IMG/VR virus record: IMGVR_UViG_3300042398_001353
DNA: 21,442 nucleotides
DNA from: a virus
Taxonomy: Duplodnaviria > Heunggongvirae > Uroviricota > Caudoviricetes
Direction: 5' to 3' (one strand)
The notes under the pieces were generated by a model. The model saw only the letters and a list, made by a program, of their open reading frames with translations, ran no database searches and was not told the DNA's origin. The position numbers and the translations under genes are program-made. This document shows, one piece after another, positions 4,747-20,941 of the stretch (position 1 is the first letter of the stretch; every line of letters starts with the position of its first letter).

Positions 4747-4753
4747 TATTTAT
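4747..4753 (+). promoter_or_regulatory. TATTTAT box
   Basis: 14 nt upstream of the ATG at 4768. Confidence 0.5.
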
Positions 4754-4767
4754 AATAAAACAACAAA

Positions 4768-6063: not shown

Positions 6064-6081
6064 TGTTTAGAATTTGTAAGT

Positions 6082-6089
6082 CAAATATA
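6082..6089 (-). promoter_or_regulatory. Bacteroidota -7 box TATATTTG
   Basis: Exact TAnnTTTG match 18 nt upstream of the GMPR-like start. Confidence 0.6.
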
Positions 6090-6129
6090 ATAAAAAAAGG
6101 AGAAACTAAAAAATAATGGAATAAAAAAG

Positions 6130-6136
6130 TATTTAT
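6130..6136 (+). promoter_or_regulatory. TATTTAT box
   Basis: GTATTTATAGAGAT-ATG, 6 nt before 6143. Confidence 0.55.
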
Positions 6137-6142
6137 AGAGAT

Positions 6143-6472
6143 ATGGAAAAGAAGATTATTTCTGAAAATGATGTTAAATCTGTTTTGGATCAACTTTTAA
6201 ACGAAGAAGCATCAAAGGTTAAAAGAGAGGAATTTAGTAGAGTTCAGTTTAAAATGGACGAATTGCAAAATTCGTTGAATGAGACAGTAAAAGAATTTAG
6301 AAAACTACAGGACTCAATTCCAGGTGGGTTAAAGACACTTTCAAATGGTAGAGTCAGTGGTATTGGTTCAAGTTTAGCTAATGCACAAAAATTACTATCT
6401 CAATTAAAAGATAAAGTTAAAACACACAAGAGATCTATATACACACAACAAGTGGAAGAGAAAAAGAAATAA
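6143..6472 (+). CDS. Hypothetical coiled-coil protein, probable late/virion-associated
   Basis: N-terminus IISENDVKSVLDQLLNEE parallels ILTESQVKKVINHLMNEE of the 611-1063 gene. Confidence 0.75.
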   Translation: MEKKIISENDVKSVLDQLLNEEASKVKREEFSRVQFKMDELQNSLNETVKEFRKLQDSIPGGLKTLSNGRVSGIGSSLANAQKLLSQLKDKVKTHKRSIYTQQVEEKKK

Positions 6473-6474
6473 AA

Positions 6475-6870
6475 CTATTTTTCTTTTTCCTTATCTAGGA
6501 ACACATTCAATTCTTTAATATCCTCAATATTTTCCATCTCGTTGACTTGGTTTTTACCTAAATCTGTTAGGAAAAACATTTCTTCCGTTTCATCATCCTC
6601 GTAAGAATCTATTAAACCATTTTTTTGTAATGATCTTAGAACATCTTCCGCAATAATCTCTTTTAAAATGGTATCAAACTCTTCCTCAGAAAAATACCCT
6701 TCATCTTCATTATCTAAACCGTTTTCTAGGAACTTTCTAGTTAACTCATCTGATATTCTCTTTCTGGCATAATTTTCGCTAGATATTTCAAATTCAGTAA
6801 AATAATCATCATCAACTAATGAAGCAATAATTTCTTCTGTGATTTCTTGGATTTTTGGTAGGTAGCTCAT
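6475..6870 (-). CDS. Very acidic hypothetical protein
   Basis: 131 aa, D/E-rich; C-terminal LQKNGLIDS...FFLTDLGK resembles a winged-helix wing. Confidence 0.72.
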   Translation of the reverse strand: MSYLPKIQEITEEIIASLVDDDYFTEFEISSENYARKRISDELTRKFLENGLDNEDEGYFSEEEFDTILKEIIAEDVLRSLQKNGLIDSYEDDETEEMFFLTDLGKNQVNEMENIEDIKELNVFLDKEKEK

Positions 6871-6891
6871 GATAAAAAATTTAATATTGAG

Positions 6892-6899
6892 CTAATATA
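6892..6899 (-). promoter_or_regulatory. -7-like box TATATTAG
   Basis: Same octamer as at 4715 and 14110; 21 nt upstream of 6870. Confidence 0.5.
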
Positions 6900-6957
6900 G
6901 ATAAAAAAAACCAAATAAAAAAATGGGATTATAATTTATTATTTAATCGATTTTGAG

Positions 6958-6965
6958 TATATTAA
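6958..6965 (+). promoter_or_regulatory. -7-like box TATATTAA heading the glycan operon
   Basis: Same octamer as at 1566; 16 nt upstream of 6982. Confidence 0.45.
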
Positions 6966-6981
6966 ATAATAAAAAAATATA

Positions 6982-8232
6982 ATGGGAAATAGCAAAATTT
7001 TTATTCAGATCGCGTCTTATAGAGACCCACAATTAATCCCCACATTAAAAGATTGTATTGAGAAAGCAAAGTATCCGGAAAATCTGGTATTTTCAATCGC
7101 ATGGCAACATTCTGTTGATGATCTTTGGGATAACCTAGATGAGTTTAAGAATGACAGTAGATTTAAAATTGTAGATATAAATTATAAAGAAGCTAAGGGT
7201 GCTTGTTGGGCTAGGAACTTACTACAACAAAATTATAATGAAGAGGAGTTTACACTTCAGTTAGATTCACACCATAGATTTATTGAAAATTGGGATGAAG
7301 AATTAATAACGATGTATTATGGATTACAAAATAAGGGTCACGAAAAACCTTTGTTAACATCATACATATCATCATATGATCCGGATAATGATCCAGCAGG
7401 AAGAACAATGGTGCCATGGAAAATGAATTTTGATAGATTTATTCCTGAGGGTGCGGTGTTTTTCTTACCTGCATCAATTGATAATCATAAAGAACTAACA
7501 GAGCCAATACCTGCTAGATTTTACTCAGCACATTTTTGTTTTACAACTGGGCAGTTTGTTAAGGAAGTACCGCACGATCCTGAATATTATTTTCATGGTG
7601 AAGAAATCTCAATCGCTGTTAGAGCATATACCTGGGGATATGATTTATTCCACCCACATAAAATAATTGCTTGGCATGAGTACACCAGAAAAAATAGAAC
7701 AAAACAATGGGATGATGATAGTTCTTGGGTGGATAAAAATAATAACTGTCATCTGAGAAATAGAAAGCTATTTGAAATGGATGGTCATGAAAAAGATATT
7801 GATTTTGGTATATATGATTTTGGTAAAGTTAGAACACTTGAGGATTATGAAAGATATGCTGGTTTGTCATTTAAAAAAAGAGCGGTACAAAAGTTCACGT
7901 TGGATAATAATATAGCACCAAATCCACCACTTTATGGTGAAGAATTCGAACAATCATTTTTGAAAATATTTAAACATTGTATAGATGTTCATAGAAGTGT
8001 CTTTGTAGATGATGATTATGATTTCTGGGCGGTAATATTTGAAGATGATAATGGTGGTACATTACATAGACAAGATATGAATGCACAAGAGGTTAAATCA
8101 ACATTAGCAACAAAAGATGATTTTATTAAAATATGGAGAACATTTGATACAGAAAAAAAACCATTTAAGTGGATTGTGTGGCCGCATTCAGAATCAAAGG
8201 GTTGGTTAAATAAAAGCGAGGGTAAGTTATAA
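6982..8232 (+). CDS. GT60-type (Skp1/Gnt1-like) polypeptide N-acetylglucosaminyltransferase with a C-terminal extra domain
   Basis: IFIQIASYRDPQL, AKGACWAR, LQLDSHHRF, FHGEEISIAVRAYTWGYD, WHEY: hallmark motifs of the GlcNAc/GT60 family. Confidence 0.8.
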   Translation: MGNSKIFIQIASYRDPQLIPTLKDCIEKAKYPENLVFSIAWQHSVDDLWDNLDEFKNDSRFKIVDINYKEAKGACWARNLLQQNYNEEEFTLQLDSHHRFIENWDEELITMYYGLQNKGHEKPLLTSYISSYDPDNDPAGRTMVPWKMNFDRFIPEGAVFFLPASIDNHKELTEPIPARFYSAHFCFTTGQFVKEVPHDPEYYFHGEEISIAVRAYTWGYDLFHPHKIIAWHEYTRKNRTKQWDDDSSWVDKNNNCHLRNRKLFEMDGHEKDIDFGIYDFGKVRTLEDYERYAGLSFKKRAVQKFTLDNNIAPNPPLYGEEFEQSFLKIFKHCIDVHRSVFVDDDYDFWAVIFEDDNGGTLHRQDMNAQEVKSTLATKDDFIKIWRTFDTEKKPFKWIVWPHSESKGWLNKSEGKL

Positions 8233-9056
8233 TGAAAAAAGTATTAACAGGGTTATCGAATAATATATCACTAAACAAACATAAAATAAAAGTTTGGTCA
8301 GAAAGTTTTAAGAAACACTCTGACGGTGATATTATTTTAATTGCAGCGAATGCTACAGATGAAGACATAAAAGTATGTGATGAATTAGGTATTAAATACC
8401 ATCAAGTTACTGTTGAGGATACGTGGTACATTAATAATAAGAGGTTAAAACACACCAAAGATTTTTTAGAACAATCTGACGCCGATCTTTTTTTGATTAC
8501 TGATGTGTTTGATGTTTTATTTCAATCTGACCCATTTAGTAAAATGGATTTAGAAAACTATGATGTATTCATTAGTAGAGAAGGTATTTTAGTTTGTGAA
8601 GAACCGTGGAATGGTGATGTGTTAAATAAGGTATTTCCAGACGAGACATCATCTTGTATGCAAACAGAGATTGTTTGTTCTGGTATTATTGGTGGTAAAA
8701 GGACTGCATTAATAAAACTATATGATAAGTTGGATTATATGTGTGAAAATAGTTTAAATGGTCACAACATTAAAGATCAAGCCGCACTTATTATTATGGT
8801 TAAGAATAATGAAATTGACAGATTAAAGAATTTTTCATTAGATGAAGGTTGGGCCATGCATTGCCAATCAGCAGGTCCAACACAATTTTTTGAATCTTGG
8901 GGACTTAAGGGTTCATTAATCAGAAAAGGGTATGGTATACCAGAATTAAGAGAAGATGGTATTGTGTATACCCAATCCGGAATAAAATATGATATGGTTC
9001 ATCAATTTAATAGAGTTGATGAATGGAAAAAAATTATAACTAAAGAATATGAATAA
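8232..9056 (+). CDS. Putative GT-A glycosyltransferase
   Basis: LITDVFDVLFQSDPF (DxxD), CSGIIGG, DQAAL, C-terminal VHQFNR; overlapping stop/start with its neighbours. Confidence 0.7.
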   Translation: MKKVLTGLSNNISLNKHKIKVWSESFKKHSDGDIILIAANATDEDIKVCDELGIKYHQVTVEDTWYINNKRLKHTKDFLEQSDADLFLITDVFDVLFQSDPFSKMDLENYDVFISREGILVCEEPWNGDVLNKVFPDETSSCMQTEIVCSGIIGGKRTALIKLYDKLDYMCENSLNGHNIKDQAALIIMVKNNEIDRLKNFSLDEGWAMHCQSAGPTQFFESWGLKGSLIRKGYGIPELREDGIVYTQSGIKYDMVHQFNRVDEWKKIITKEYE

Positions 9057-9804
9057 CGCATTATGTATTTGCTCGACTAGTGATCTGTATGGTCCGTTTG
9101 CTGATGAGTGGCTAAATGAACCAATTGTTAATGGTGATAAATTTGTAATTGTTGATGTAACAAAAGACCCATCCTTTAATAAGGGGTTTACATTTACTGA
9201 ACAACAATTAAGAGAAAAAATGAATTTTACACAAGAAGTTAGTAAACTCAATTGGTGGAACTCATATGGTAATAGAAACATTGCTTGGTTTTATGCCCAT
9301 TTAAGAATGATAAATTTTTATATGGAACACCCAAATTATGATTACTATTGGTTTTTTGATGACGATATTAAAATGGATAATTGGGCATTGTTTTTTGATT
9401 CATTTAAAAATGAAGACGCTGATTTCTTAACATATTTTTTATTTAAAAATATTGACGTTGATACACAACCAGATGTACCGGTAATTGATGATAGAACATA
9501 TTCTAGAACTGAGTGGTTTAAAAGATTTCCTGGGATTGATGCTAATTTACCTAAAGATATGACCAAACTATTTGGTTCGTTTTTCCCAACAACCAGATTT
9601 TCAAATAAAGCATTAAAGACTATCATGGATTATAATACAAATGGTTATCATGCTTATCATGAGGGAATGGTGCCAACCATATTAAATTATGAGGGACAAA
9701 AATTAAAAACAATAATAACACCGGAAAACACTTCAAATTTCTTCGATGTTAATGAAGTTAATATTGTACACAAAAATCAAAAAATTAATTGGGAATGGAT
9801 ATAA
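9049..9804 (+). CDS. Putative GT-A glycosyltransferase
   Basis: YDYYWFFDDDI (DxD) motif, HEGMVPT; located within the operon. Confidence 0.62.
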   Translation: MNNALCICSTSDLYGPFADEWLNEPIVNGDKFVIVDVTKDPSFNKGFTFTEQQLREKMNFTQEVSKLNWWNSYGNRNIAWFYAHLRMINFYMEHPNYDYYWFFDDDIKMDNWALFFDSFKNEDADFLTYFLFKNIDVDTQPDVPVIDDRTYSRTEWFKRFPGIDANLPKDMTKLFGSFFPTTRFSNKALKTIMDYNTNGYHAYHEGMVPTILNYEGQKLKTIITPENTSNFFDVNEVNIVHKNQKINWEWI

Positions 9805-11147
9805 AAAAAACGGCTATTGTTACAGCCATATTTGATATTGGTAGAGATAAGTGGGATAATTTTACAATGTCTTACCACACCTATTTGTGGTGGATGCGAA
9901 ATTTACTTTACTTAGATACCAATCTTATTATCTATACTGAAGAGAAGTTTAAAAATGATATTTTAAATTACAGGAAAGAGGTTGATCCTCATTTAGAAAA
10001 AACAATTTTAATAATCCAACCTCTTGGGGCTATTGAGGGTTATAAAACATTTTATGAGCCATTGAATACTTTAATGTTAAGTGATGAATTTAAGAAAGAT
10101 ATTCAATTCGATGTTCCGGAGATGACAAAGCCATTATATAATGTGGTAATGTTTGCTAAGTTGTTTTACATATTAGATTCAGCTAGAAAAAACTTATTTG
10201 ATGCTGACTTATACGCATGGGCGGATGCTGGTGTTATAAGAAATGATCAACCGGAAAAAAATGTTAAATGGCCAGATATTCAAAAGATTAATGAATTAGA
10301 TAATAACAAAGTTACGTTCTTTTGTCATCACCCATATGTTAGGGTTGGCGAGGATCAATATAAGTTTCATGCATTATCTCAAATGAGATATATTCAAGGT
10401 GGGGCCGTATTTGTACCTAAAAAATGTGTAGAAGATATTTGCGAATTATTTAAAACAACAGCATTGGATTGTATATCAAAAGGGTTTGTTGGTAGTGATG
10501 AAAAAATATTTGACTTCACATATCTTACTAATCCAGATAATTACAATCTAATACAATGTGGATGGAGAGAATATATTGATTTGTTTACAACAAAAAAAGA
10601 TTTAGAGCTAGTTGTTTCACATTATAACGAGGATATATCCTGGACAAATGATATTAAGTATAAAACAACAATTTATAATAAGAACGAAAATGAAACAAAT
10701 CTATTTCAAAATAACTTACCAAATATAGGTAGAGAAGGTCACACGTTCTTTAATCATATTGTTAACAATTATGATAATTTACCAGAATATTTAGCATTTG
10801 TTCAGGGAAACCCTTTTGACCATTGTCCAGACTTAAAAAACATTATCAATGACTTTGATTTTAAAACAGAGTTTAAACCATTAGGTGTTTTACATCAGTT
10901 AACGATGGAATATGAAGGAATTAATCAACAAGTACAATCATTTAGTGAAAGAATGGGGTTTAATATTACATATCCAATATATATGGTACCGGGAGGTCAA
11001 TACTTAATAAGTAAAAGATTGATTCATAAAAAACCAAAACAATTTTATATGAATATACTAAATTCGTTATCTAATAACATATACCCACAAGAAGGTTTAG
11101 ATGTTGAAAAAACATTATTTCAAATATATAATATATATAAAAATTAA
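9795..11147 (+). CDS. Fusion: HtrL/YibB (WlaTC-like) glycosyltransferase plus DUF3431 domain
   Basis: N-part IVTAIFDIGR...VMFAKLFYI...YAWADAG...GSDEK; C-part LVVSHYNEDISW...NIGREGHTFFNHIVNNYDNLP...FVQGNPFDH. ATG at 9795 preferred over TTG at 9789. Confidence 0.72.
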   Translation: MDIKKTAIVTAIFDIGRDKWDNFTMSYHTYLWWMRNLLYLDTNLIIYTEEKFKNDILNYRKEVDPHLEKTILIIQPLGAIEGYKTFYEPLNTLMLSDEFKKDIQFDVPEMTKPLYNVVMFAKLFYILDSARKNLFDADLYAWADAGVIRNDQPEKNVKWPDIQKINELDNNKVTFFCHHPYVRVGEDQYKFHALSQMRYIQGGAVFVPKKCVEDICELFKTTALDCISKGFVGSDEKIFDFTYLTNPDNYNLIQCGWREYIDLFTTKKDLELVVSHYNEDISWTNDIKYKTTIYNKNENETNLFQNNLPNIGREGHTFFNHIVNNYDNLPEYLAFVQGNPFDHCPDLKNIINDFDFKTEFKPLGVLHQLTMEYEGINQQVQSFSERMGFNITYPIYMVPGGQYLISKRLIHKKPKQFYMNILNSLSNNIYPQEGLDVEKTLFQIYNIYKN

Positions 11148-11150
11148 AAA

Positions 11151-11954
11151 ATGAAAAGAATACTAGTAACACCAGCAGGGAGAAAAAGATATTTAGAAAT
11201 ATTATTTAATCATTTAAATAATTTAAAAAATGAGTTTGATGAATGGATATTATGGGTAAATACAGAAAACGTGGATGATATACAATACATGGAAAAACTA
11301 GAAAATGAAAATGAATTTATAAAATTACAAAGAACAAAAATTGGTGTTAGGGGTAGTGAAACTATTTTTCATTTTTTTAAAGAATGTGTGGATGAGAATT
11401 CTGTTTATATTAGATTAGATGATGATATTGTGTATATTAAACCAAATTCTTTAAAAAATTTATTTAATTTTAGAATAAACAATCCAAATTATTTTTTGGT
11501 ATATGGTAACATTGTTAATAATGCAATAATATCACATTTATATCAAAGAGTGGGTGCTATCACCAGTGAATTTGTATTTGGTTATAATTGTGTTGACCAT
11601 AATGGTTGGAATAATCCTATTGCATCAGAATCAATACATCGAAGATTTTTTGAGTTATATGAAAGCAACCAGCTTGCCGATTTTTCAATAAATGATTGGA
11701 TTTTAAAACACTATGAAAGATGTTCTATTAACGTTATCTCTTGGTTAGGTAGTGAATTTAAGAAATTTGATGGTAACGTTGGTTTTGATGAAGAGGCTTG
11801 GTTATCGTGTGACAAACCAAGGGAAATACAAAAACCTAATATTATTTTTGGCGATGGTTTATTTGTTCATTACGCATTTTTTACTCAGAGAAACCACATG
11901 GATAGTACAGACATTTTGGAATTATATAAAAACATCTCAATTAATATTAAATAA
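11151..11954 (+). CDS. Putative GT-A (GT2-like) glycosyltransferase
   Basis: LVTPAGRKRYL, YIRLDDDIVYI, DEE-x-WL, VHYAFFTQR. Confidence 0.65.
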   Translation: MKRILVTPAGRKRYLEILFNHLNNLKNEFDEWILWVNTENVDDIQYMEKLENENEFIKLQRTKIGVRGSETIFHFFKECVDENSVYIRLDDDIVYIKPNSLKNLFNFRINNPNYFLVYGNIVNNAIISHLYQRVGAITSEFVFGYNCVDHNGWNNPIASESIHRRFFELYESNQLADFSINDWILKHYERCSINVISWLGSEFKKFDGNVGFDEEAWLSCDKPREIQKPNIIFGDGLFVHYAFFTQRNHMDSTDILELYKNISINIK

Positions 11955-13057
11955 TGTACAACTACTTGATAGTCGGGTCCGGATTATTTGGATCTATATT
12001 TGCCAGAGAATTAACAGACAAAGGATACAAATGTTTAGTTATAGATAAAAGAAATCACATTGGTGGTAATTGTTATACTGAAGAGATTGAGGGTATTAAT
12101 GTGCATAAGTATGGCCCCCATATTTTTCATACATCTGATGATGATGTGTGGGAATATATGAATAGGTTTTGTAAATTCAATCATTATGTTAATAGACCTA
12201 AAGTAAATTATAAAGAAAAGATTTATTCATTCCCTATTAACTTAATGACATTATATCAGTTGTACAATGTAACAACACCAGAACAAGCTAAAATCATGTT
12301 AAATAACGTTAAGCATGATATTGAGAACCCAAAGAATTTAGAAGAATGGATATTATCACAAGTTGGTACTGAAATATATGAAATATTCATTAAGGGTTAT
12401 ACAACAAAGCAATGGGGAAGAGAACCCAAATTATTACCATCAAGCATAATTAGAAGATTACCTATTAGGTTGACATTTGATGATAATTATTTTTTTGACA
12501 AATACCAGGGAATACCGATTGGTGGATATACAAAAATATTTGAAAAATTATTAGAAGGTATTGATGTTAAATTAGGTGTTGATTACTTTGAAAATAAACA
12601 ATATTGGGACAATCAATGTGATAAAGTAGTGTATACTGGCCCTGTTGATAGATATTATGATTATAGGTTTGGTAATCTAGAATACAGAAGTTTAGAATTT
12701 AAAACAGAATTAAAGGATGTTGAAGATTTTCAAGGTAACGCTATTATAAATTATACTGATATTAATCATGAATATACCAGAATTATTGAACATAAACATT
12801 TTGAGTTCGGTAAACAAAAGAAGACTGTTATTACAACAGAGTATCCAAAGAGTGCAGGTGATCCATATTATCCTGTTAATGACACCATTAACAACACTAG
12901 ATACAACCAATATAAAGAATTAATGAATCTTGAGGACAGTGTGATCTTTGGCGGTAGATTGGCTGATTACAAATACTATGATATGCACCAAGTTGTGGCA
13001 TCAGCATTAAAAAGAGTTAAAGACGAAATATTTATAAAAACCGGTTACACACCATAA
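11954..13057 (+). CDS. glf: UDP-galactopyranose mutase
   Basis: IVGSGLFG FAD motif, HIGGNCY, HKYGPHIFHT, GYTTKQWG, YQGIP, YRSL, YTRIIEHKHF, PYYP, FGGRLADYKYYDMHQ. Confidence 0.95.
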   Translation: MYNYLIVGSGLFGSIFARELTDKGYKCLVIDKRNHIGGNCYTEEIEGINVHKYGPHIFHTSDDDVWEYMNRFCKFNHYVNRPKVNYKEKIYSFPINLMTLYQLYNVTTPEQAKIMLNNVKHDIENPKNLEEWILSQVGTEIYEIFIKGYTTKQWGREPKLLPSSIIRRLPIRLTFDDNYFFDKYQGIPIGGYTKIFEKLLEGIDVKLGVDYFENKQYWDNQCDKVVYTGPVDRYYDYRFGNLEYRSLEFKTELKDVEDFQGNAIINYTDINHEYTRIIEHKHFEFGKQKKTVITTEYPKSAGDPYYPVNDTINNTRYNQYKELMNLEDSVIFGGRLADYKYYDMHQVVASALKRVKDEIFIKTGYTP

Positions 13058-13086
13058 ATCGATAAACAACTTATACATGGACCCTG

Positions 13087-13329
13087 ATGATGAACAAAAT
13101 CAAAAAATTAAAAGACAAACACAGAAGGTTAGTGCTATACAAAGATACATCTCTAATGTTAGCAATGTTCTTTCTCCCATTTGGGTACGACGCTCTGTTC
13201 AAATTAATAATGGATCTGAGTGGTTCCTATTGGGTAGCAGATATCGTTTTCTATTCTATTTCAGGTTGTTTCTGGTTGTCTTATATATTTCTTACGAAGT
13301 ACTTAAATAAAAAAGAAACCTCCAATTAG
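13087..13329 (+). CDS. Small two-helix membrane protein
   Basis: 80 aa with a basic N-terminus and two hydrophobic segments. Confidence 0.65.
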   Translation: MMNKIKKLKDKHRRLVLYKDTSLMLAMFFLPFGYDALFKLIMDLSGSYWVADIVFYSISGCFWLSYIFLTKYLNKKETSN

Positions 13330-13340
13330 GAGGTTTTTTT
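13316..13340 (+). terminator. Intrinsic terminator (probably bidirectional) between convergent units
   Basis: AAACCTCC-AATTA-GGAGGTTT followed by a T-run; an A-run precedes it. Confidence 0.75.
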
Positions 13341-13457
13341 ATTGTCTGTTTTTCCTGGTTGCTGTAAACCTTTTTTAGTTTCATCTTTTTTAACATTATG
13401 ACTCTTTGTTGCGTCTTTATGTTTTTCTAAGATTTTCTTTTTTTCTTCTTCGGTCAT
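13326..13457 (-). CDS. Unannotated 43-aa basic protein MTEEEKKKILEKHKDATKSHNVKKDETKKGLQQPGKTDNKKTS
   Basis: Translated by hand: ATG at 13457, TAA at 13328-13326. Fills the gap below the 13468 gene and has an ILE (I-x-E) site. Confidence 0.65.
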   Translation of the reverse strand: MTEEEKKKILEKHKDATKSHNVKKDETKKGLQQPGKTDNKKTS

Positions 13458-13467
13458 TTTGAATACA

Positions 13468-13764
13468 CTACTCATATTTTAATTGTTTTTTGTTTTCTTG
13501 GAGACATTTCTCTTTTTTATTTTTTAGTACTAAACATTTTTCATACTCTTCTGTTTCTTCTAGAATTTGTATCATTCTATCAATAATTTCGATCAATAGT
13601 TCCAAATCATTATTATAACTTAATATTGTCTTGTTATTAATATACTCATAAATCATGTCATTGTCAACATTTCTTATGTAATCATATATCATTCTAACCT
13701 CATCATCATCATAGTTGCCTACGTGAAGAACTCTAGTTGCTTGTAAAAGAAATGATATGGACAT
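13468..13764 (-). CDS. Hypothetical protein with C-terminal UVR-like motif; start revised to MSISFLLQ (13764)
   Basis: EETEEYEKCLVLKN motif. A TATTTAT box lies 4 nt before the in-frame ATG at 13764. Confidence 0.65.
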   Translation of the reverse strand: MSISFLLQATRVLHVGNYDDDEVRMIYDYIRNVDNDMIYEYINNKTILSYNNDLELLIEIIDRMIQILEETEEYEKCLVLKNKKEKCLQENKKQLKYE

Positions 13765-13768
13765 ATTC

Positions 13769-13775
13769 ATAAATA
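13769..13775 (-). promoter_or_regulatory. TATTTAT box
   Basis: GATATTTATGAAT-ATG. Confidence 0.45.
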
Positions 13776-13780
13776 TCCCT

Positions 13781-14104
13781 TCACTCATTGATTAACTTTT
13801 TTTCTAAGATCCTGAAACATTCAAAGAAGCCATCCTTTTCAATCTCCTCTCTATTTTCTTTAGAAGATTGTGTTGGCCCAAAAACAATTCCGTTATTTAA
13901 TGAAATAGTAAAAACCCATTGTTTAGGGTTATACATTTCAACTGTTAGATATATCCCTTCTTTATCAAAGAATCTATAAAGTTTCTTTAAATCATATCCT
14001 CCGATCGTGGAAATACTTAATACCCCCACGTTTGGAAACATGATATCATTAAATCTTTTAAATGCTTTGGGGTACAAATATTCCACCGAATACCAATCTA
14101 ACAT
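13781..14104 (-). CDS. Hypothetical protein
   Basis: 107-aa ORF with TATATTAG box upstream. Confidence 0.72.
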   Translation of the reverse strand: MLDWYSVEYLYPKAFKRFNDIMFPNVGVLSISTIGGYDLKKLYRFFDKEGIYLTVEMYNPKQWVFTISLNNGIVFGPTQSSKENREEIEKDGFFECFRILEKKLINE

Positions 14105-14109
14105 AATAA

Positions 14110-14117
14110 CTAATATA
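14110..14117 (-). promoter_or_regulatory. -7-like box TATATTAG
   Basis: 5 nt upstream of the ATG at 14104. Confidence 0.5.
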
Positions 14118-14191
14118 ACAAATATCTATCAATAATTATAAAATTCATAGGCTTTTATAAAAAAAAGACATACTTATTTGGTACTGATAAA

Positions 14192-14425
14192 ATGATAATA
14201 CGAGAGTTTTACCTTAATGAGGATACCGGCGGTCTTTATGTCGAATTCTCAACAAAAAATGACGGGGATGATTTCTATAGGGTTCTTGAATTAACCAGGA
14301 ATGATATTGAATATTATTCACCAACGTTATTGGATGAAGATAGTGAAATAGACGAGGATTTTATATCTGAGCTACTATTTGAGTACTCAAAACACAACGA
14401 ATTACCAGAAGAAGAAATATTGTGA
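14192..14425 (+). CDS. Small acidic hypothetical protein
   Basis: 77 aa, D/E-rich. Confidence 0.7.
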   Translation: MIIREFYLNEDTGGLYVEFSTKNDGDDFYRVLELTRNDIEYYSPTLLDEDSEIDEDFISELLFEYSKHNELPEEEIL

Positions 14426-14432
14426 TATTTAT
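14426..14432 (+). promoter_or_regulatory. TATTTAT box
   Basis: GATATTTATAAGTT-ATG, 5 nt before 14438. Confidence 0.55.
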
Positions 14433-14437
14433 AAGTT

Positions 14438-14809
14438 ATGGGATTCCTAAACGATCAACAAAAAGAAAAATTAACAGAATTTATAAAATTCGTAAAAGGT
14501 GAGCTTCAGTTAAAGTCCACTCCAAAGGTTGTTGTGCAAAACGGTAGAAAAGAACTTAAAACAACAGCAAACTATGATTATACTAAACCAGAAAAGGTAA
14601 TTAAGGTTAATGCAAAGAATAGGATGCTAGTTGATGTAATGAGAAGTGTTGCTCACGAGCTGGTACATCACAAACAATACGAAGACGGTCGCCTAGATGG
14701 TCCAAAACCACCAGATATTGGGGGTGAAATTGAAGACGAAGCAAACGCTAAAGCTGGCCAGTTTATCAAAATGTTTGCACAAAAGGATCAAACCATATAT
14801 GACGAATAA
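14438..14809 (+). CDS. HExxH zincin-like putative metallopeptidase
   Basis: RSVAHELVHHKQ with downstream IEDEANAKAG. Confidence 0.68.
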   Translation: MGFLNDQQKEKLTEFIKFVKGELQLKSTPKVVVQNGRKELKTTANYDYTKPEKVIKVNAKNRMLVDVMRSVAHELVHHKQYEDGRLDGPKPPDIGGEIEDEANAKAGQFIKMFAQKDQTIYDE

Positions 14810-14810
14810 A

Positions 14811-15407
14811 TTAATTTCGTTTAAAGGTTAATGTAACAAACGCTGTTACAGCTTTTTCTCTAATACCACTACTTAAATAAAGATCAGTACTAATATTTGG
14901 GCTAGTTAAGGTCATTACTCTAGAATAACCTGCGCCAAATTTATCTGTTGTGAATGTGAAATTAGTTTCATTTCCATTCATATGATTACTAACAACCATT
15001 TCAGTTTGAATATAATCACCATATTTGTTTGGTAGATATGGTCTAGGAAATTTAACATATATTTCATCATCAAAACTGTTATTAACTCTTAATGGGAAAA
15101 ACGTTGATTGACTAGGACCATCAAAATCCCACGTTGTAACACCTTTAATGAATCTTCTATCAATCGATGTTTTATTATAGTTTTGTTTCATAAGTATCCC
15201 ACCAGACACAAAAGACTGATCACCAAAGTTATTAATACATATCGTGTCACTTTTAATAACCTGAACTTTGCTTAAAGATTGTACAATAGTCACTGTATAA
15301 TCATCAAAATACCATTTTCCAGCAACAGATGGTTCACTAGGTAATTCGTACTTCTCACAACCCCAAAATAGCGGTGCAATTACTAGTATTAAGAATAGTT
15401 TTTTCAT
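14811..15407 (-). CDS. Lipoprotein of unknown function
   Basis: MKK plus hydrophobic core plus FWG-C lipobox, then CEKYELPSE; beta-rich mature part. Confidence 0.75.
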   Translation of the reverse strand: MKKLFLILVIAPLFWGCEKYELPSEPSVAGKWYFDDYTVTIVQSLSKVQVIKSDTICINNFGDQSFVSGGILMKQNYNKTSIDRRFIKGVTTWDFDGPSQSTFFPLRVNNSFDDEIYVKFPRPYLPNKYGDYIQTEMVVSNHMNGNETNFTFTTDKFGAGYSRVMTLTSPNISTDLYLSSGIREKAVTAFVTLTFKRN

Positions 15408-15489: not shown

Positions 15490-16986
15490 ATGCATTTAGT
15501 AATAACAGAAAAACAGCTTAAAAAGCTATCATCACAACTTATTGCGTTTCAAGACGTTAAAGAGGAAGATGATCCAGCCGCAGCTGCTCCAGAAGCTGGT
15601 ACATCAAGCGATGGTGCTAATAAGACTGGTGCAACCAAGTGGGAAAGCGGCGCTACTAGAGGCCCTGGAAATCAAATTGGTGTAACTAAATGGTCTGATG
15701 TTGTTGGTTCTACCTTGAAAAGAGGTAAAGCAAATCCATTAAGTGAACAGGTATTACTTGGTGGGCCCGTTCCTATTGATCCGGTAGCATTAAATAATAC
15801 TTTCAATCCAGCGACAGATACACCCACAAAAGAATATATAACATTTTGGGGAGATAAAATTAATTTACCAGCAGATGGTAGTGTAACTGTTTCACTATGG
15901 AAAGATGATCCGGAAAAACCTAGAGCTTTGCATTTTAAAAATGCTGTTAGAGACCCAGATATGCCAGAATATATTTATTGGCCTCAAAATTATGTTAATC
16001 CGGAAACAAAAAAACTAGAAACAAAAAATGAGTTAGCTCCAGATGATGATTGGTTGAGAAAAAAGTTTCCAACAGGAACTGTAAAATATATTGAGACAAA
16101 TAGTGATAAAAGAATATATACAGTACTTTTAACACAAAGAAGTAAAAAAACTGGGTGGGAGGTTAATAATAATTATTTTTATACCGATACTGGCGCAGGT
16201 AAACATATACCATTTGATCCTAAAAAATATGTGCATGTTTCATTCACAACTGATGCGTTAAAGTTTTTAAAAGAAAACTGGCCCATTATTGGTGAAATTG
16301 TTGTGAGTATTGCTGCTGGGATTTTAACTGGTGGCTCATCATTATTGGTACAGGCGTTGGTTCAATCTGGTGTTGCATTAACATTTGCTGGATCAGTTTA
16401 TGCTTTAAGTGATAAAAAAAGCGCTGATACCGTTGGTTTGGTTACTGGTATTTTAATTGGTTGTTTACCTTTTATTCCGGCCGCAACAAAGTTAGGACTA
16501 AAAGGCCCATTAAAAGGTTTAGCAAAATATGGTGACGAATTGGCTTTAGCTAAAAACGAAGATGAAATTTTGGGTATAATCGCCAAATTCGATGAAGCAG
16601 AACAAATTTTAATAACAAGATGTATGAAACAAATACCTAAAGCAGAATTTGAAAAAGTACTTTCAAATAAGCTTATTCAAGGTTTCGCAGATCAAGTTAA
16701 ATCTGGTAAAATTGTTTTATCAAAAATACCGGGGTCACAATTAAGATGGTGGAAAGAATTATTAGTTGAGGGTGGTGGTGCGATACCAATTGCAGTTGGT
16801 GGACACGCATATAGTTCAATACAAGAAAGAAAAGATGCTGAAAAACAAATTCTTGATTTAATTAAACTTAAATCAGCTGATACTACCCAACCAGCAAATA
16901 ATTCACAACCAACAAATAATACACAATCAGCAAATACAACTAAACCAGTAAATGGTGATCCGCTGAGCATAAGAAAAAATAAGTAA
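15490..16986 (+). CDS. Putative virion/ejection protein with central hydrophobic G/A-rich helices and T/N/Q-rich tail
   Basis: N-terminus VITEKQLKKL, hydrophobic stretches around aa 265-335, C-terminal TTQPANNSQPTNNTQSANTT then GDPLSIRK. Confidence 0.7.
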   Translation: MHLVITEKQLKKLSSQLIAFQDVKEEDDPAAAAPEAGTSSDGANKTGATKWESGATRGPGNQIGVTKWSDVVGSTLKRGKANPLSEQVLLGGPVPIDPVALNNTFNPATDTPTKEYITFWGDKINLPADGSVTVSLWKDDPEKPRALHFKNAVRDPDMPEYIYWPQNYVNPETKKLETKNELAPDDDWLRKKFPTGTVKYIETNSDKRIYTVLLTQRSKKTGWEVNNNYFYTDTGAGKHIPFDPKKYVHVSFTTDALKFLKENWPIIGEIVVSIAAGILTGGSSLLVQALVQSGVALTFAGSVYALSDKKSADTVGLVTGILIGCLPFIPAATKLGLKGPLKGLAKYGDELALAKNEDEILGIIAKFDEAEQILITRCMKQIPKAEFEKVLSNKLIQGFADQVKSGKIVLSKIPGSQLRWWKELLVEGGGAIPIAVGGHAYSSIQERKDAEKQILDLIKLKSADTTQPANNSQPTNNTQSANTTKPVNGDPLSIRKNK

Positions 16987-16998
16987 TATTTATAAATA
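16987..16998. promoter_or_regulatory. Palindromic TATTTATAAATA
   Basis: Plus-strand box 12 nt upstream of 17006. Confidence 0.5.
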
Positions 16999-17005
16999 AA
17001 AAAAA

Positions 17006-18118
17006 ATGAAAACAGTTTTAACAGAAGAAATAAAAAAAGCCAAAAAATTAATGGGCCTTTTAAATGAAGCAGCCGCTGGTGGTGGAATATTAAAAGCGTT
17101 GTTTCGTAACATGGTTACGGATCAAATTGATAATGCGTTTGCTAAAATTGAAGCTAAGATTGGCGGTTCGTTAACCGGATCAAATAGTCTAACATCTTTA
17201 GAAAGAGCGATCAGTAATAAACAAATCACCAAAAAAGAAGCTTTAGCTATTTTACTTGATACATTAGGTATGAGTGACGACGTTGTTGCTGATCTAATTG
17301 AAAAAGAAGTTAATGCTAGTTTTGTGGCATTACAAGCCGCAGCTAGAAATAAAAAAACAAGGGGAGAGATCATTGCTGCAGTTCCTGAATTAGCAGATTT
17401 ACCTGATGGTGTAATTAATTCTTTACTTAAAAAATCTGGTGTAAAAATTGGTGATGCGGTTACCGTTAGAGAGTTAATTGGAACACTATCTGGATCATAT
17501 CCTGAATTATTTGCTCAAACTTGGTTTAAGGCGTGGAAAAATGAAGCTGTTTTAAAAGGTGTTATTAACGAAGCAGAACAAGCATTTACTGGTAAAAATT
17601 TAGCAGCCGTTGTGGACGAACTTAAAGTTATGTTATCTAAAGCAAATGGTATTGCTGATGATTTAATGAAAAAGAAAAAAATGACCGCAGAACAAGGTAA
17701 TTCATTTAAAAAATCTGTGGGTAAATTTCTTGAATCAATAAACCCAGTAAAACATGAAATATTAGACCCTAAAAAAGTTGATTGGTCTGGAACAACAAAA
17801 CAATTTGCAAAAGGTGCTATCGGTAGTTATTTAATATACAAAATTGCTACAAACTGGTATGAAACTGGTTCACCTATTGGTGGAATAGCTAAAACGGGTA
17901 GTGAGGAATATGAAAAAGCAAAAGAATATGTTACCCCAGCAACAGGTTCAAAATATGATTTAAAAAATTTCTTTATGAAAACTTATGGGTACACTCAAAA
18001 AGAAGTTGATGCATTAAAAATTGAATATATTGGAGCTTCAAAATATACTGTAGTAAGTGGTGGTGGAACAACAACTTGGGAATATGATGGTAAGGGTGCT
18101 TATAATTTAAAAAAATAA
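17006..18118 (+). CDS. Putative virion/ejection protein, Ala/Lys-rich and helical
   Basis: N-terminus VLTEEIKKAKKLMGLLNEA. Confidence 0.7.
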   Translation: MKTVLTEEIKKAKKLMGLLNEAAAGGGILKALFRNMVTDQIDNAFAKIEAKIGGSLTGSNSLTSLERAISNKQITKKEALAILLDTLGMSDDVVADLIEKEVNASFVALQAAARNKKTRGEIIAAVPELADLPDGVINSLLKKSGVKIGDAVTVRELIGTLSGSYPELFAQTWFKAWKNEAVLKGVINEAEQAFTGKNLAAVVDELKVMLSKANGIADDLMKKKKMTAEQGNSFKKSVGKFLESINPVKHEILDPKKVDWSGTTKQFAKGAIGSYLIYKIATNWYETGSPIGGIAKTGSEEYEKAKEYVTPATGSKYDLKNFFMKTYGYTQKEVDALKIEYIGASKYTVVSGGGTTTWEYDGKGAYNLKK

Positions 18119-18120
18119 TA

Positions 18121-19074
18121 ATGGATAATATTTTAGAACAAAACAATAACGACCCATTAAAAGCGAGAGGTGGTAGTGGCGCAACAAGTAGCGATCCATT
18201 AGGCGCGAGAGGTAGTAGTGGTGTTTCAAACAACGACCCATTAAAAGCGAGGGGTGGTAGTGGATCGACAGATAATGACCCATTAAAAGCAAAGAGTGAT
18301 ACAAATGACCCACTAAAGGCGAAAACTAATACAACACCAGTAACTTCCGATGTTTTTGCTTGTTTATTAAATAATACTGAAACACCAAAAATTGTAAAAA
18401 CAAGTAGCCCAAGGCAGGTAAGACGAGTTTTTGATGATGAAACTCATTACTTTTTTAGTGATTATTTTTTTCAAATTACAGACAAGACCGGCAAAACGGT
18501 ACAATATAAGGGTACTTGGAAATGTGATGGTGATAAAGATTTTATAATAAACACCGAAGATGGTGATGAATATAGTACTAAAGCTGGCAAGTGGAAAGGA
18601 CCTACTAAAAATAACAATAGTAATAGTAATAGTAACAATAATTCAGGTAGTGGTACCTCATTAGTAGATACAACATTAACTGCTGATGATTTAAAAGCGG
18701 GTAAATTTGTTAAAAAAGGAATGAAGGGTAAGATTGTTGGTGATATACAAAATTTACTAATTAAATTAGGTTATACCGATGTAAGTAAATCTGGTAAAGC
18801 AGATGATAAGTTTGGTTCCAGAACCGAGAAAATGGTAAAAGATTTTCAAAAAGCTAATGATTTAACAGATGATGGTTCTGTAGGTGAAAAAACTTGGCCA
18901 AAATTAAATGACCCAGCAGCTGTTAAAAACAGTGGATCAAGCTCATCTAGTTCATCTAGTTCATCAGGTGCTTTAGGATCATCAAATGATAATGAAACTG
19001 AGCCAGGTTCTGATATTATAATCAAAGAATCTTTGAAAAAAAGTTTAAGAAAAAACCTACTAAAATTTAATTAA
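18121..19074 (+). CDS. Peptidoglycan-binding (PG_binding_1) domain protein with DPL-x-A repeats and S/N-rich linkers
   Basis: KKGMKGKIVGDIQNLLIKLGY...ADDKFGSRTEKMVKDFQKANDLTDDGSVGEKTWPKL is a typical three-helix PG-binding domain. No catalytic hydrolase motif recognised. Confidence 0.8.
   Translation: MDNILEQNNNDPLKARGGSGATSSDPLGARGSSGVSNNDPLKARGGSGSTDNDPLKAKSDTNDPLKAKTNTTPVTSDVFACLLNNTETPKIVKTSSPRQVRRVFDDETHYFFSDYFFQITDKTGKTVQYKGTWKCDGDKDFIINTEDGDEYSTKAGKWKGPTKNNNSNSNSNNNSGSGTSLVDTTLTADDLKAGKFVKKGMKGKIVGDIQNLLIKLGYTDVSKSGKADDKFGSRTEKMVKDFQKANDLTDDGSVGEKTWPKLNDPAAVKNSGSSSSSSSSSSGALGSSNDNETEPGSDIIIKESLKKSLRKNLLKFN
18142..18324 (+). repeat. Five in-frame repeats D-P-L-(K/G)-A-(R/K), 42-nt period
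   Basis: Asp codons at 18151, 18193, 18235, 18277 and (30 nt later) 18307. Confidence 0.9.
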
Positions 19075-19089
19075 TAGTTAATTACAAGA

Positions 19090-19096
19090 TATTTAT
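19090..19096 (+). promoter_or_regulatory. TATTTAT box upstream of a non-coding segment
   Basis: GATATTTATATTA-GGAG. Confidence 0.5.
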
Positions 19097-19100
19097 ATTA

Positions 19101-19195
19101 GGAGTTTGATTGGTTTGGTCGCCGTCAAATGATAATACGAAAAAACGAAAGGAGGTATTCAATCTCGACAAAGGAGCTCTAAAGGCTCTTTTGTT
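19101..19195 (+). ncRNA. Candidate structured small RNA 2
   Basis: Own TATTTAT box; three-way junction (GATTG/CAATC, TTTGGT/GTCAAA, AATAC/GTATT with C-GAAA-G in the loop); TCGACAAAGG; 10-bp hairpin ACAAAGGAGC/GCTCTTTTGT. Confidence 0.5.
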
Positions 19196-19213
19196 CGTTT
19201 AGGTGGTTAAGGA

Positions 19214-19220
19214 TATTTAT
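19214..19220 (+). promoter_or_regulatory. TATTTAT box
   Basis: GATATTTATCATAT-ATG, 5 nt before 19226. Confidence 0.55.
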
Positions 19221-19225
19221 CATAT

Positions 19226-20119
19226 ATGAAATTCAGGGATTTATTACAAGATTTATTGGAAGATCAATTACCATGTGAAAAGGTAGTAACGTATGATATG
19301 CTTAATAGAGCAAAAAATTGGTGGTTGAACCGTTTAACTAATGACCCTAGTATTGTAAGTAAAATATTAAAAACAAAATATGGTAATGGTCAATTACAAA
19401 AAATGAATAAAAATTCCATTAATGAGTTAATTGATAACACATCTAAAGATATAATAACGGCAGTAAAAAGAATTAATTTAGTAAATAAAATAGAATATTT
19501 TAATTCAAATGAACAAGAGGTTATGTACGTTAAACCAAATAAACCAACAATTGTGTGGGTTAATTGTAATAGGGTTAAAGGACTTAGTAATGAAGATAAT
19601 TATGGTTTTTTAATACATGAATTACAACACACGATACACGATTTAATAGGGGTAGATTCATCAACTGTAGTAGATACGGGTTACTATAGAAATTATATTA
19701 GTAATGTGTGGGATACAAAAGAGATATTAAAATTAAGTAATCCCCAAAGTTCGTGGTATGATAATGCAAAAAATTATGTTTTAAAATTATTTGGAAACGA
19801 TACTAATCAAAAAGATGATGAATATTTCACAAAAGAACATGCTAAAAGATTGTACAATGAATATCCGCAATACCGCACATATGCATGTGATCCAAATGAA
19901 ACACAATCAAGAATGGCTCAGGTAAGAGCAATGTTAAATTTAAAACCAAATCAAGACATTACAATAGATATGTTAAGAAATCCTAAAATATATGACGCAT
20001 TTCAACTTAATTTGATGTGTTGGGGTGGTAGGACCGATAATGTTTCTTTTCAAGATTATTTAAATAATCTTAATTTGTTGGCTACTAATAATAAACAAAA
20101 TACATCAACACAAGTATAA
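19226..20119 (+). CDS. HExxH zincin-like protein, probable virion-associated
   Basis: LIHELQHTIH with distal DPNETQSRMAQVR; N-terminus MKFRDLLQDLLED. Confidence 0.68.
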   Translation: MKFRDLLQDLLEDQLPCEKVVTYDMLNRAKNWWLNRLTNDPSIVSKILKTKYGNGQLQKMNKNSINELIDNTSKDIITAVKRINLVNKIEYFNSNEQEVMYVKPNKPTIVWVNCNRVKGLSNEDNYGFLIHELQHTIHDLIGVDSSTVVDTGYYRNYISNVWDTKEILKLSNPQSSWYDNAKNYVLKLFGNDTNQKDDEYFTKEHAKRLYNEYPQYRTYACDPNETQSRMAQVRAMLNLKPNQDITIDMLRNPKIYDAFQLNLMCWGGRTDNVSFQDYLNNLNLLATNNKQNTSTQV

Positions 20120-20120
20120 T

Positions 20121-20145
20121 AAAAAACCCATCCGAAGATGGGTTT
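20121..20145 (-). terminator. Bidirectional intrinsic terminator with a C(UUCG)G loop on the tmRNA strand
   Basis: Minus strand AAACCCATC-TTCG-GATGGGTTT-TTT. Confidence 0.85.
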
Positions 20146-20150
20146 AAGTG

Positions 20151-20544
20151 TGGAGGTGACGGGACTCGAACCCGTGTCTTTCCTGTTCAACAATAAATGA
20201 CTACACGTTTATTCTATTAGTTCATAACAGACAAATAGTAAGTTAATTGCGGAAAACTTACAATACCGCTTCTGACCGGATTTTCAAGAGCCGCCAAATT
20301 TGCTCCAACACTCTGGGGTTATGTTCCACCGAAGGGACTTCTGTTCCTAGGTTATATGTCCAATCGACCCGATTGTAGTTTCGCCTTAGGCTACCGCTAC
20401 GTTAGAAGTTGCAAGTAAACCTGCAATTTCCATGTTGTTATAAACGTTGCCGCTTAAATTGCTTCACCGTGGATTTAAGTCATAGATGAATTCTGACTAC
20501 GTGCCATTTACCCCTGATACCTGAAATCAATGCCAGGCACCCCC
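20151..20544 (-). ncRNA. ssrA: tmRNA (one-piece, about 394 nt, CCA not encoded)
   Basis: 5' GGGGGTG pairs with 3' CACCTCC-A including the G3-U alanine determinant; T-arm GACACGGGTTCGAGTCCCGTC; no anticodon arm; internal tag frame ending in Ala then TAA. Confidence 0.93.
20386..20451 (-). other. tmRNA tag reading frame (A)GNVYNNMEIAGLLATSNVAVA*
   Basis: Resume codon GGC inferred after ATTTAAGC; 21 codons plus TAA, translated by hand. Confidence 0.8.
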
Positions 20545-20547
20545 GTA

Positions 20548-20567
20548 ATAAATAGAATACAAATGTA
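20548..20567 (-). promoter_or_regulatory. Tandem promoters of ssrA: TACATTTG (-7 box) and TATTTAT box
   Basis: TACATTTG at 20567-20560 and TATTTAT at 20554-20548, 3 nt before the mature 5' end. Confidence 0.6.
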
Positions 20568-20570
20568 GAT

Positions 20571-20600
20571 AAAAAAGGGTTAAAATGAAAATCTTAACCC
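20571..20600 (-). terminator. Intrinsic terminator after the 20624-20941 gene
   Basis: Minus strand GGGTTAAGAT-TTTC-ATTTTAACCC-TTTTTT. Confidence 0.75.
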
Positions 20601-20623
20601 ATTATTTTAAATAAAAAAGCTAA

Positions 20624-20941
20624 TTATTTAGATTTTCTCTTAGCTCCTTTTCTAGTTGAACCATTAGCAGCTTTAGTAACGTCTTTAGCTTGTTCAACAA
20701 CTTTCTTAGTTGCTTTAACAACGTCAGCTACTTCTTCTTTAACACGCTTAGCTCTTTGCTTAACGACTTCAACTTTTTCTTTAACCTCCGCAACAACTTC
20801 TTTGACGTCTTCAATTTTTTCCTCGATAGCGTCAGGAATGTTATTATTGTTGGCATCTTTAATTTTCCCTGATTTCATTAATAAATAAGCAATTCCACCA
20901 GAAACTAATAAGGCTAATAAAATTAAAAATAATGTTGTCAT
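20624..20941 (-). CDS. Membrane-anchored protein with a DxNxNxxxD loop and amphipathic K/E/V repeats
   Basis: N-terminal TM helix, DANNNNIPD, VKEVVAEVKEKVEVVK-type repeats, basic C-terminus. Confidence 0.75.
   Translation of the reverse strand: MTTLFLILLALLVSGGIAYLLMKSGKIKDANNNNIPDAIEEKIEDVKEVVAEVKEKVEVVKQRAKRVKEEVADVVKATKKVVEQAKDVTKAANGSTRKGAKRKSK

Follow-up and report, generated by a model that had tools for sequence, protein, structure and literature searches.

A widespread N-terminal module and a motif-ending leader on putative head-loaded cargo proteins of an uncultured T4-type lake phage

In a 21,442-nucleotide stretch of the tailed-phage record IMGVR_UViG_3300042398_001353 (hereafter, the window; G+C content around 30%), two adjoining open reading frames (ORFs) on the plus strand encode the proteins P0001 (498 amino acids (aa); 15490–16986) and P0002 (370 aa; 17006–18118). 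We propose that both are cargo proteins that may be loaded into the phage head and released by a protease, and that the body of P0001 may be membrane-active. We put the probability of this combined reading at roughly 45%, with the packaging-and-cleavage half more likely than the membrane half. Cleavage-type motifs, an upstream box, free and fused forms of one module and a swap of protein bodies are directly observed in the sequences. The original prediction, made from the letters of the window, had described the pair as orphan proteins that are packaged and enter the host envelope during DNA delivery. The term orphan applies solely with respect to Pfam and PHROG, in which neither protein matched a family, because P0001 has 186 homologues among metagenomic proteins (E ≤ 1e-3) and P0002 has 10. 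Neither matched any of 50,697 deposited phage records (blastn and tblastn), and no cultured relative was found there. The original prediction had also missed that the N-terminal 86 residues of P0001 are a widespread, independently occurring module.

Alignments of the P0001 family (24 and 79 members) revealed a hyper-conserved N terminus and, beyond a middle part that varies, a Gly/Ala-rich hydrophobic region that is conserved and a helical C-terminal part, and many homologues match over the first ~87 residues only, at up to 91% identity, in proteins of very different length. Across the 79 sequences, E25, P34, G37, W51, G54, R57, G58, W68, R78, N82, L84 and E86 are invariant. The T4 protease gp21 cleaves after L/I-X-E, according to the available part of the source (PMC9026906), and motifs of this kind end at two of the invariant glutamates: at E25, [ILV]-x-E is found in 77 of 77 aligned members, and at E86, L-x-E is found in 79 of 79. 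The middle residue varies freely at both sites, and E86 is followed by Q in 76 of the 79. As originally stated, P0001 has no signal peptide, its N terminus being polar with no Sec-type signal. A C-terminal D-P-L was considered as a family feature and dropped, because it is present in just 8 of the 79 sequences.

P0001 and P0002 share one type of leader at their N termini, which bears out the earlier claim of a common terminal peptide. The P0002 family has an invariant E21, with [LIV]-x-E in all 12 alignment rows. Leader ends in the window read L-L-N-E/A (P0002), L-L-N-E/E (gene 6143–6472) and L-M-N-E/E (611–1099, counted from an internal Met). As a close relative we used G001, a 251-kb IMG/VR record that is collinear with the window, with DNA about 80% identical and with proteins encoded at 42–14809 that are 73–95% identical; its capsid protein carries Y-L-I-N-E/A near residue 59. 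A position-specific scoring matrix trained solely on P0001-family leaders gave at least 18 bits at the N termini of 6 of 352 G001 ORFs, five of them other than the P0001 counterpart, and none of 1192 internal Met sites reached 8 bits. A looser leader pattern matched 3 of 39 ORFs in the window and 4 of 352 in G001, with internal matches at 1 in 6,027 and 1 in 76,235 residues, respectively. One leader-tagged G001 protein (9877–10851) contains a Peptidase_C39-like domain (E = 3e-8 to 3e-6) and is a candidate packaged protease. Judged by these matches, the leader is a portable N-terminal tag that sits on unrelated proteins.

Together with the Trp/Gly/Arg-rich core to its C-terminal side (residues 26–86), the leader of P0001 makes up the N-terminal module (the N-module). 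Searched as a profile against 1.84 billion proteins, the module retrieved 286 cluster representatives, and 161 of these had E ≤ 1e-10. The proteins that bear it are 64–933 aa long, and the module nearly always occupies residues 1 to ~85. A prophage or cellular origin was dropped, because 185,579 bacterial and archaeal species genomes yielded a single weak partial match. In a scan of viral contigs, P0001 alone as the query found no relative and an alignment query found 88 loci, of which 80 were kept. The module is free-standing (an ORF of less than 100 aa) in 52 of these 80 loci (36 distinct) and fused to bodies of 291–775 aa in the other 28 (21 distinct). Distinct free forms end in N-x-L-x-stop in 34 of 36 cases, whereas all 21 distinct fused forms read N-x-L-x-E, so that the free protein ends one residue before the point at which the protease motif would release it. 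Free modules occupy the syntenic slot of P0001, behind homologues of window genes 13468–14809; the genes that follow them differ, and some bear leaders. Within the 80 loci, the body profile matched only where it was fused to the module. In distant relatives, the gene found at 14438–14809 in the window, whose protein has an HELVH motif, keeps its place to the left of the module gene. A DNA-binding role for the module was considered and dropped, because the net charge after the leader ranges from −5 to +5 with a median of about +1. We found no published description of the module or the leader in a literature search that missed most subscription journals.

The boundary of the module is also a boundary of DNA homology. 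Alignment of the window to G001 by blastn ends at 15749, the penultimate base of codon 87, and the cassette that follows (Table 1) contains the P0001 body, the entire P0002 gene and the repeats of P0003, which is encoded directly after P0002. P0001 is 36% identical to its G001 counterpart overall and 80% identical over residues 41–80; for P0002, identity is about 25–29% (29% over 154 aa). Because DNA homology stops at the module end, the bodies are best read as swapped cassettes. A second kind of variant was seen in lake metagenomes, in which 37 letters bridge positions 15710 and 16985 in contigs from three of four runs; in the P0001 frame, these letters read ...V-L-K-R-G-K-A-N-P-L-K-stop (depths of 3.2–6.6). 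These contigs were placed at 80% likeness and therefore derive from relatives, in which the free module is followed without a gap by the box and leader of the gene behind it. In T4, the internal proteins are diverse and just the targeting sequence is conserved, as far as the available part of the source describes (PMC3012670). To the left of P0001, a predicted lipoprotein (14811–15407, minus strand; signal ending F-W-G-C) is 55% identical to its G001 orthologue, against 73–95% further left, so the fast-evolving zone begins before P0001.

Both genes are preceded by the TATTTAT box described in the original prediction; TATTTAT(A) starts 12 nucleotides (nt) ahead of the P0001 start codon (15490) and 19 nt ahead of that of P0002 (17006). 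The word itself is not enriched in the window (24 observed, 19.9 expected). In G001, however, 40 of 78 copies of TATTTATA lie 0–30 nt upstream of a same-strand start, against a uniform expectation of 1.2, so that position and orientation are what is enriched. Control words gave lower counts in the same interval (7/78 for the reverse complement; 1/58, 4/111 and 5/31 for three AT-rich words), and in the window, 8 of 12 copies of TATTTATA are so placed. The box precedes about 40 of 258 genes in G001 and 8 of 32 in the window. A PHROG comparison covered 28 of the boxed genes in G001, to the exclusion of those with an orthologue in the window and of four that ran across the ends of the stretches used: 20 had no match, 3 matched families of unknown function and 5 matched functional families, namely the terminase large subunit, portal, head maturation protease, head–tail adaptor and baseplate wedge. 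Given its placement and the virion functions of the boxed genes, TATTTATA is probably the late promoter of the clade. It is reminiscent of the T4 late promoter, which is a single element. Sigma-70-type promoters are not enriched in the window (24 found, 24.5 expected).

The evidence for a membrane-active body comes from hydropathy. The hydrophobic strings quoted in the original prediction are present, at residues 266–306 and 315–332 of P0001, and Kyte–Doolittle means over 19 residues reach 1.75 (264–292), 1.58 (285–303) and 1.92 (311–337). At least one region with hydropathy of 1.6 or more is found in 78 of the 79 family members, at least two in 53 of 79, and such a segment is present in 18 of 21 distinct fused proteins. 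An AlphaFold2 model of P0001 built from 79 sequences had a mean predicted local distance difference test (pLDDT) score of 66.6. In it, residues 7–19 form a helix, residues 20–93 score 37–45 although they are the most conserved stretch, and residues 252–465 are helical at 47–84, with the hydrophobic helices at the low end (47–57). Structural searches returned little: Foldseek with the full model found nothing in the PDB at E ≤ 1e-3, the highest Z that VIA-align reached over 48,161 chains was 4.7, and BFVD yielded a single match, an uncharacterized protein of an uncultured phage (E = 3.1e-5). A PDB sequence search with the family profile reached a best E of 0.072. No pore-former fold was matched, with the beta-rich domain (105–250) searched only within the full-length model. 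In the ESM Atlas, residues 88–470 matched only unnamed clusters at the best score (0.89), and the named clusters T6SS_Tle1-like_C, PT-TG, DUF637 and DUF4225, at 0.81–0.84, were set aside as chance-level.

P0002 fits the cargo reading through its leader and box, and its body would be soluble. A model from 12 sequences (mean pLDDT 73.4) is almost entirely helical, in line with the original prediction, with a small C-terminal sheet. The late hydrophobic patch that had been ascribed to P0002 did not hold up, because its hydropathy peaks at 1.37 at residues 80–98 and is not membrane-grade. BFVD returned nothing for this model at E ≤ 1e-3, and the best VIA-align hits (Z = 7.3) were generic three-helix bundles, within noise for helical proteins, and were discarded. 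When the P0001 body (88–470) and P0002 (22–370) were predicted as a complex, the scores were 0.30 and 0.00, with the mark at 0.32; we saw nothing that points to joint action of P0001, P0002 and P0003.

Table 1 Features at the P0001–P0002 locus and box positions in the window
Feature	Position in window	Strand	Basis or detail
P0001 gene	15490..16986	+	leader, N-module, beta domain, hydrophobic helices, helical C-domain
P0001 leader, residues 1–25	15490..15564	+	helix 7–19; ends V-K-E25
P0001 N-module core, residues 26–86	15565..15747	+	two W-x-S-G..R-G-x-x-N units; ends N-P-L-S-E86
P0001 beta-rich domain, residues 105–250	15802..16239	+	variable across relatives; pLDDT 92–97
P0001 Gly/Ala-rich hydrophobic helices, residues 264–337	16279..16500	+	hydropathy 1.58–1.92; low model confidence
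P0002 gene, 370-aa helical protein	17006..18118	+	ORF, family alignment, model
P0002 leader, residues 1–21	17006..17068	+	ends L-N-E21
Cassette without DNA homology to G001	15750..18327	+	blastn segments stop at 15749 and resume at 18328
TATTTATA box before P0001	15478..15485	+	4-nt gap to ATG 15490
TATTTATA box before P0002	16987..16994	+	directly after P0001 stop; 11-nt gap to ATG 17006
TATTTAT box before P0004	19214..19220	+	12 nt before ATG 19226
TATTTATA boxes in the window	4747, 6130, 14426, 15478, 16987	+	upstream of genes
TATTTATA boxes in the window	3499, 4266, 20965	−	upstream of genes
P0003	18121..19074	+	five DPL(K/G)A(R/K) repeats (~10–69), middle domain, PG_binding_1 (203–261), Ser-rich linkers
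P0004, HELQH motif, second leader type	19226..20119	+	Pfam matches all under cut-off

The head-loading reading presupposes a phage with T4-type head maturation. A gp21-type prohead protease (PF03420, Peptidase S77) was present in all three module-carrying records searched, G001 among them, and a gp23-type capsid protein in both of the two searched. In G001 the protease is encoded at 77576–78265, and a scaffold-like protein at 78358–79554. The closest deposited capsid proteins are 29–42% identical over the aligned parts and belong to an uncultured 484-kb phage, Rhodothermus phage RM378, Flavobacterium phages and Microcystis phages. The window stretch was found in 24 lake or freshwater DNA runs; there was no RNA dataset among these 24. 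From these sequence matches, the source is a distant T4-type jumbo phage, uncultured and from lakes, and its host is probably a member of the Bacteroidota. Aquatic Bacteroidota jumbo phages with a T4-like core, which may or may not be of the window's lineage, were described in 2025, in the part of the source available (PMC12619734).

On this basis, we envisage the following course. P0001 and P0002 would be made late, and their N-terminal leaders would bring them to the prohead core, where a gp21-type prohead protease would free them after [L/I/V]-x-Glu. P0001 would be a polyprotein composed of the leader (1–25), the Trp/Gly/Arg-rich module (26–86) and a swappable body (87–498). The body would remain in the head, exit with the DNA and insert its hydrophobic helices into the host membrane, as is proposed for gp47 of phage SPN3US. 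P0002, from the same cassette, would be cargo of a soluble, helical kind. We infer each of these steps, from packaging and cleavage to ejection and insertion into the membrane. For packaging, the part of the original prediction that fared better, the leader with its prohead-protease motif, the late-type box shared with virion genes and the conserved tag on swapped bodies provide indirect sequence support. For entry into the envelope, the hydropathy of P0001 speaks in favour, and the lack of a membrane-grade segment in P0002 and of a pore-former fold match speaks against. In the structure prediction that had been suggested as a check, the hydrophobic helices are not convincingly buried, and no membrane topology is evident either.

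Several observations weigh against this reading. The family is known from sequence alone; the protease and capsid genes were seen only in relatives, which serve as a proxy for the phage of the window. Tripeptides of the [LIV]-x-E type are frequent in these proteins, so only the invariance of the sites carries weight, and some leader-bearing genes, such as 611–1063 in the window, have no box. P0002 has no membrane-grade segment, and for P0001 the low pLDDT of the hydrophobic helices, the crudeness of hydropathy as a measure and the ability of Gly/Ala-rich helices to pack in soluble bundles leave room for a buried arrangement. The late box would also fit lysis genes, and a peptidoglycan-binding protein and an ORF with weak spanin-like matches are nearby. 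L84 is invariant in free-standing modules too, with no Glu after it, so its conservation is not due to cleavage alone. Residues 26–86 are the best conserved yet are predicted to be disordered, which is odd for a discarded propeptide. A stretch that is conserved and apparently disordered, and that keeps L84, must have a role of its own; perhaps the module docks to the prohead core.

Taken further, and only tentatively, the 60-residue module might be a universal head-docking unit of the clade, made either free or as the front part of polyproteins, with a stop codon and a protease site as interchangeable ends of one product, into which recombination at the stop or cut boundary and at the next box–leader plugs new cargo, including a membrane-inserting protein that is injected with the DNA. 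Were this somewhat doubtful extension correct, the phages would possess a natural modular cargo-loading system that is larger and more structured than the 10-residue tag of T4.

The genes that follow P0002 bear on one of the alternatives. P0003 (317 aa) begins 2 nt past the P0002 stop, has no box of its own and is the peptidoglycan-binding protein named in the original prediction, with a PG_binding_1 domain (PF01471) that scores 56.5 bits where the cut-off is 23 (E = 3.1e-15). Its best PHROG matches are endolysin families (E = 4e-17), its PDB relatives match in the PG_binding_1 domain alone, and no catalytic domain was seen in Pfam or PDB searches. Its N-terminal repeats (window 18148–18327) are of the D-P-L-(K/G)-A-(R/K)-G-G type, where G001 has a K-R-A-G-G type, and the repeat motif resembles the module end N-P-L-K and the P0001 end G-D-P-L-S. 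P0004 (297 aa), which follows, is 82% identical to its G001 counterpart at the N terminus, 75% at the C terminus and 28–50% in the middle, and it matched nothing among PDB sequences. It carries a second leader type, MKFRDLLQDLLE or M-(K/N)-F-(K/R)-D-(I/L)-(L/I)..., which ends in L-x-E or I-x-E at residue 12–14 and is also found on two further boxed G001 genes (3495–4130 and 18376–19623). Further downstream, a 105-aa ORF (20624–20941) has an N-terminal hydrophobic helix and weak spanin-like matches (E = 0.0035–0.0085).

With these neighbours, P0001 could instead be a late inner-membrane protein of the infected cell, with the N-module as a cytoplasmic interaction domain. It might help to time lysis, as the holin or antiholin that partners P0003, or it might exclude superinfecting phages or anchor head assembly to the membrane. 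Its two or three membrane-grade segments, the late-type box in front of it, the endolysin-family matches of P0003 and the spanin-like ORF would all suit such a role. We nevertheless consider it unlikely: P0001 matches no holin or lysis family in Pfam or PHROG, its 498 aa and large beta domain are unlike known holins, P0003 shows no catalytic domain, and the [LIV]-x-E sites, the equivalence of stop and cut site and the presence of the leader on soluble enzymes would go unexplained. A different possibility is that the N-module is a subunit of the prohead core or scaffold, similar to gp67 and gp68 of T4, and P0001 a variant core protein that is degraded or expelled, so that nothing is delivered to the host. 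The module is conserved and near-universal, stands free in 52 of the 80 loci and invariably occupies one syntenic slot, and T4 core proteins are small and cut by gp21, in the available part of the source (PMC5694885). Core proteins, however, are normally conserved over their full length, whereas the P0001 body is exchanged between phages with ~80% DNA identity and is missing in natural variants, and the gene lies outside the head cluster (33.7 kb against 72–81 kb in G001). The swapping and natural absence of the body fit an accessory, host-facing role instead, and we regard the core-subunit explanation as improbable.

Gly/Ala-rich hydrophobic stretches are typical of tape-measure proteins, and P0001 might accordingly be a tail-channel or tape-measure-like protein that is loaded into the tail and leaves through its tip to breach the membrane. 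The aquatic Bacteroidota jumbo phages mentioned above, which may be of another lineage than the window, have no identified tape-measure gene in the part of the source available (PMC12619734). P0001 is far too short for the tail of a jumbo phage, its gene is not in the tail cluster and is missing in natural variants, no tape-measure PHROG or Pfam family was matched, and gp21-type motifs would serve no purpose in a tail protein, all of which makes this explanation very hard to credit.

Cleavable head-targeting tags are already known from T4 and from phiKZ-like phages, and the cargo reading of P0001 and P0002 can be set against both. T4 internal proteins are soluble, whereas P0001 has membrane-type helices. 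The capsid targeting sequences of T4 IPI, IPII, IPIII and Alt are similar to the leader described here in being short N-terminal tags that end in L/I-x-Glu and are removed by gp21, in a lineage with a gp21-type protease and a gp23-type capsid protein, on late genes outside the head cluster. In T4 the tag is conserved and the bodies are diverse and fast-evolving, as the available parts of the sources report (PMC9026906, PMC3012670). The same pattern of a conserved tag on diverse bodies is borne out here, in that homology to G001 ends at the module boundary, the bodies range from 291 to 775 aa and the leader occurs on unrelated proteins. The leader of P0001 and P0002 has 21–25 residues and the T4 propeptides, which are the capsid targeting sequences, have 10, in the available part of the source (PMC9026906). 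P0001 also has a second, 60-residue module with its own putative cut site that exists as a separate gene as well, and T4 internal proteins are small and basic (PMC9026906, available part).

Closer in architecture is SPN3US gp47, an essential head protein with a 111-residue propeptide, cut sites AVE-79 and ALE-111 and a predicted transmembrane helix in its mature part, which is proposed to be ejected and occupies the fast-diverging slot of phiKZ gp86 and 201phi2-1 gp148, as described in the available part of the source (PMC5694885). P0001, by motif and hydropathy only, has a long putative propeptide as well, two protease-motif sites (E25 and E86) and a predicted membrane helix in the mature part; its gene, too, diverges rapidly in a conserved syntenic slot, and a role at the host membrane is proposed for both, for gp47 in that same source. 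The two show no sequence similarity, tblastn of P0001 against the 50,697 phage records giving nothing at E ≤ 0.01. The motif of SPN3US is A-x-E, and that of the P0001 family is L/I/V-x-E; the phages belong to different clades, that of P0001 having a T4-type capsid and a probable Bacteroidota host. Moreover, mass spectrometry and an amber mutant support the role of gp47, whereas P0001 is known here from its sequence. The ejection proteins of podoviruses (T7 gp14, gp15 and gp16; P22 gp7, gp16 and gp20) also lie inside the virion, exit along with the DNA and become inserted in the envelope. Unlike the cargo proposed here, they are not known to be protease-processed proteins with a targeting leader, and P0001 has no fold or sequence match to them. 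Specific to the present system would be the two-part address with its 286-cluster module, the equivalence of stop and cut site, and the exchange of cassettes with membrane-type cargo at that boundary.

Elsewhere in the window, we noted several features in their own right. A transfer-messenger RNA gene (20148–20544, minus strand; Rfam RF00023 at 73.8 bits, where the cut-off is 47; tag peptide ATSNVAVA* according to ARAGORN) coincides with much raised contig depth at 19942–20742 in the lake runs. A run of glycosyltransferase-type genes (6982–13057; PF11397 GlcNAc transferase, HtrL_YibB, DUF3431) closes with two genes at 11151–13057 that are missing from the collinear G001, namely an ORF of 267 aa and one for a UDP-galactopyranose mutase (PF03275, E = 6e-76). 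Auxiliary genes include a secreted-type DNA/RNA non-specific endonuclease with a signal peptide (PF01223; 2129–2731) and an IMPDH/GMP-reductase (PF00478; 5014–6063). HExxH motifs occur in three small or medium-sized proteins, namely those encoded at 14438–14809 (HELVH), 3491–3889 (HEYTH) and 19226–20119 (HELQH), none of which has a Pfam family above the cut-off.

If the cargo reading of P0001 and P0002 is correct, abundant uncultured jumbo phages of lakes would load varied proteins into their heads by means of a leader and a 60-residue module, with a cargo of enzymes and a membrane-active protein that is swapped at the protease site. The principle of the T4 internal proteins would then extend to membrane cargo and to a polyprotein design. 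It would also yield a rule by which the injected proteins of metagenomic phages could be predicted from sequence, and it would point to a transferable tag with which foreign proteins could be loaded into capsids of the T4 type. Even if the cargo reading fails, the N-module, with its 286 clusters, is a conserved and as yet unnamed family of phage proteins.

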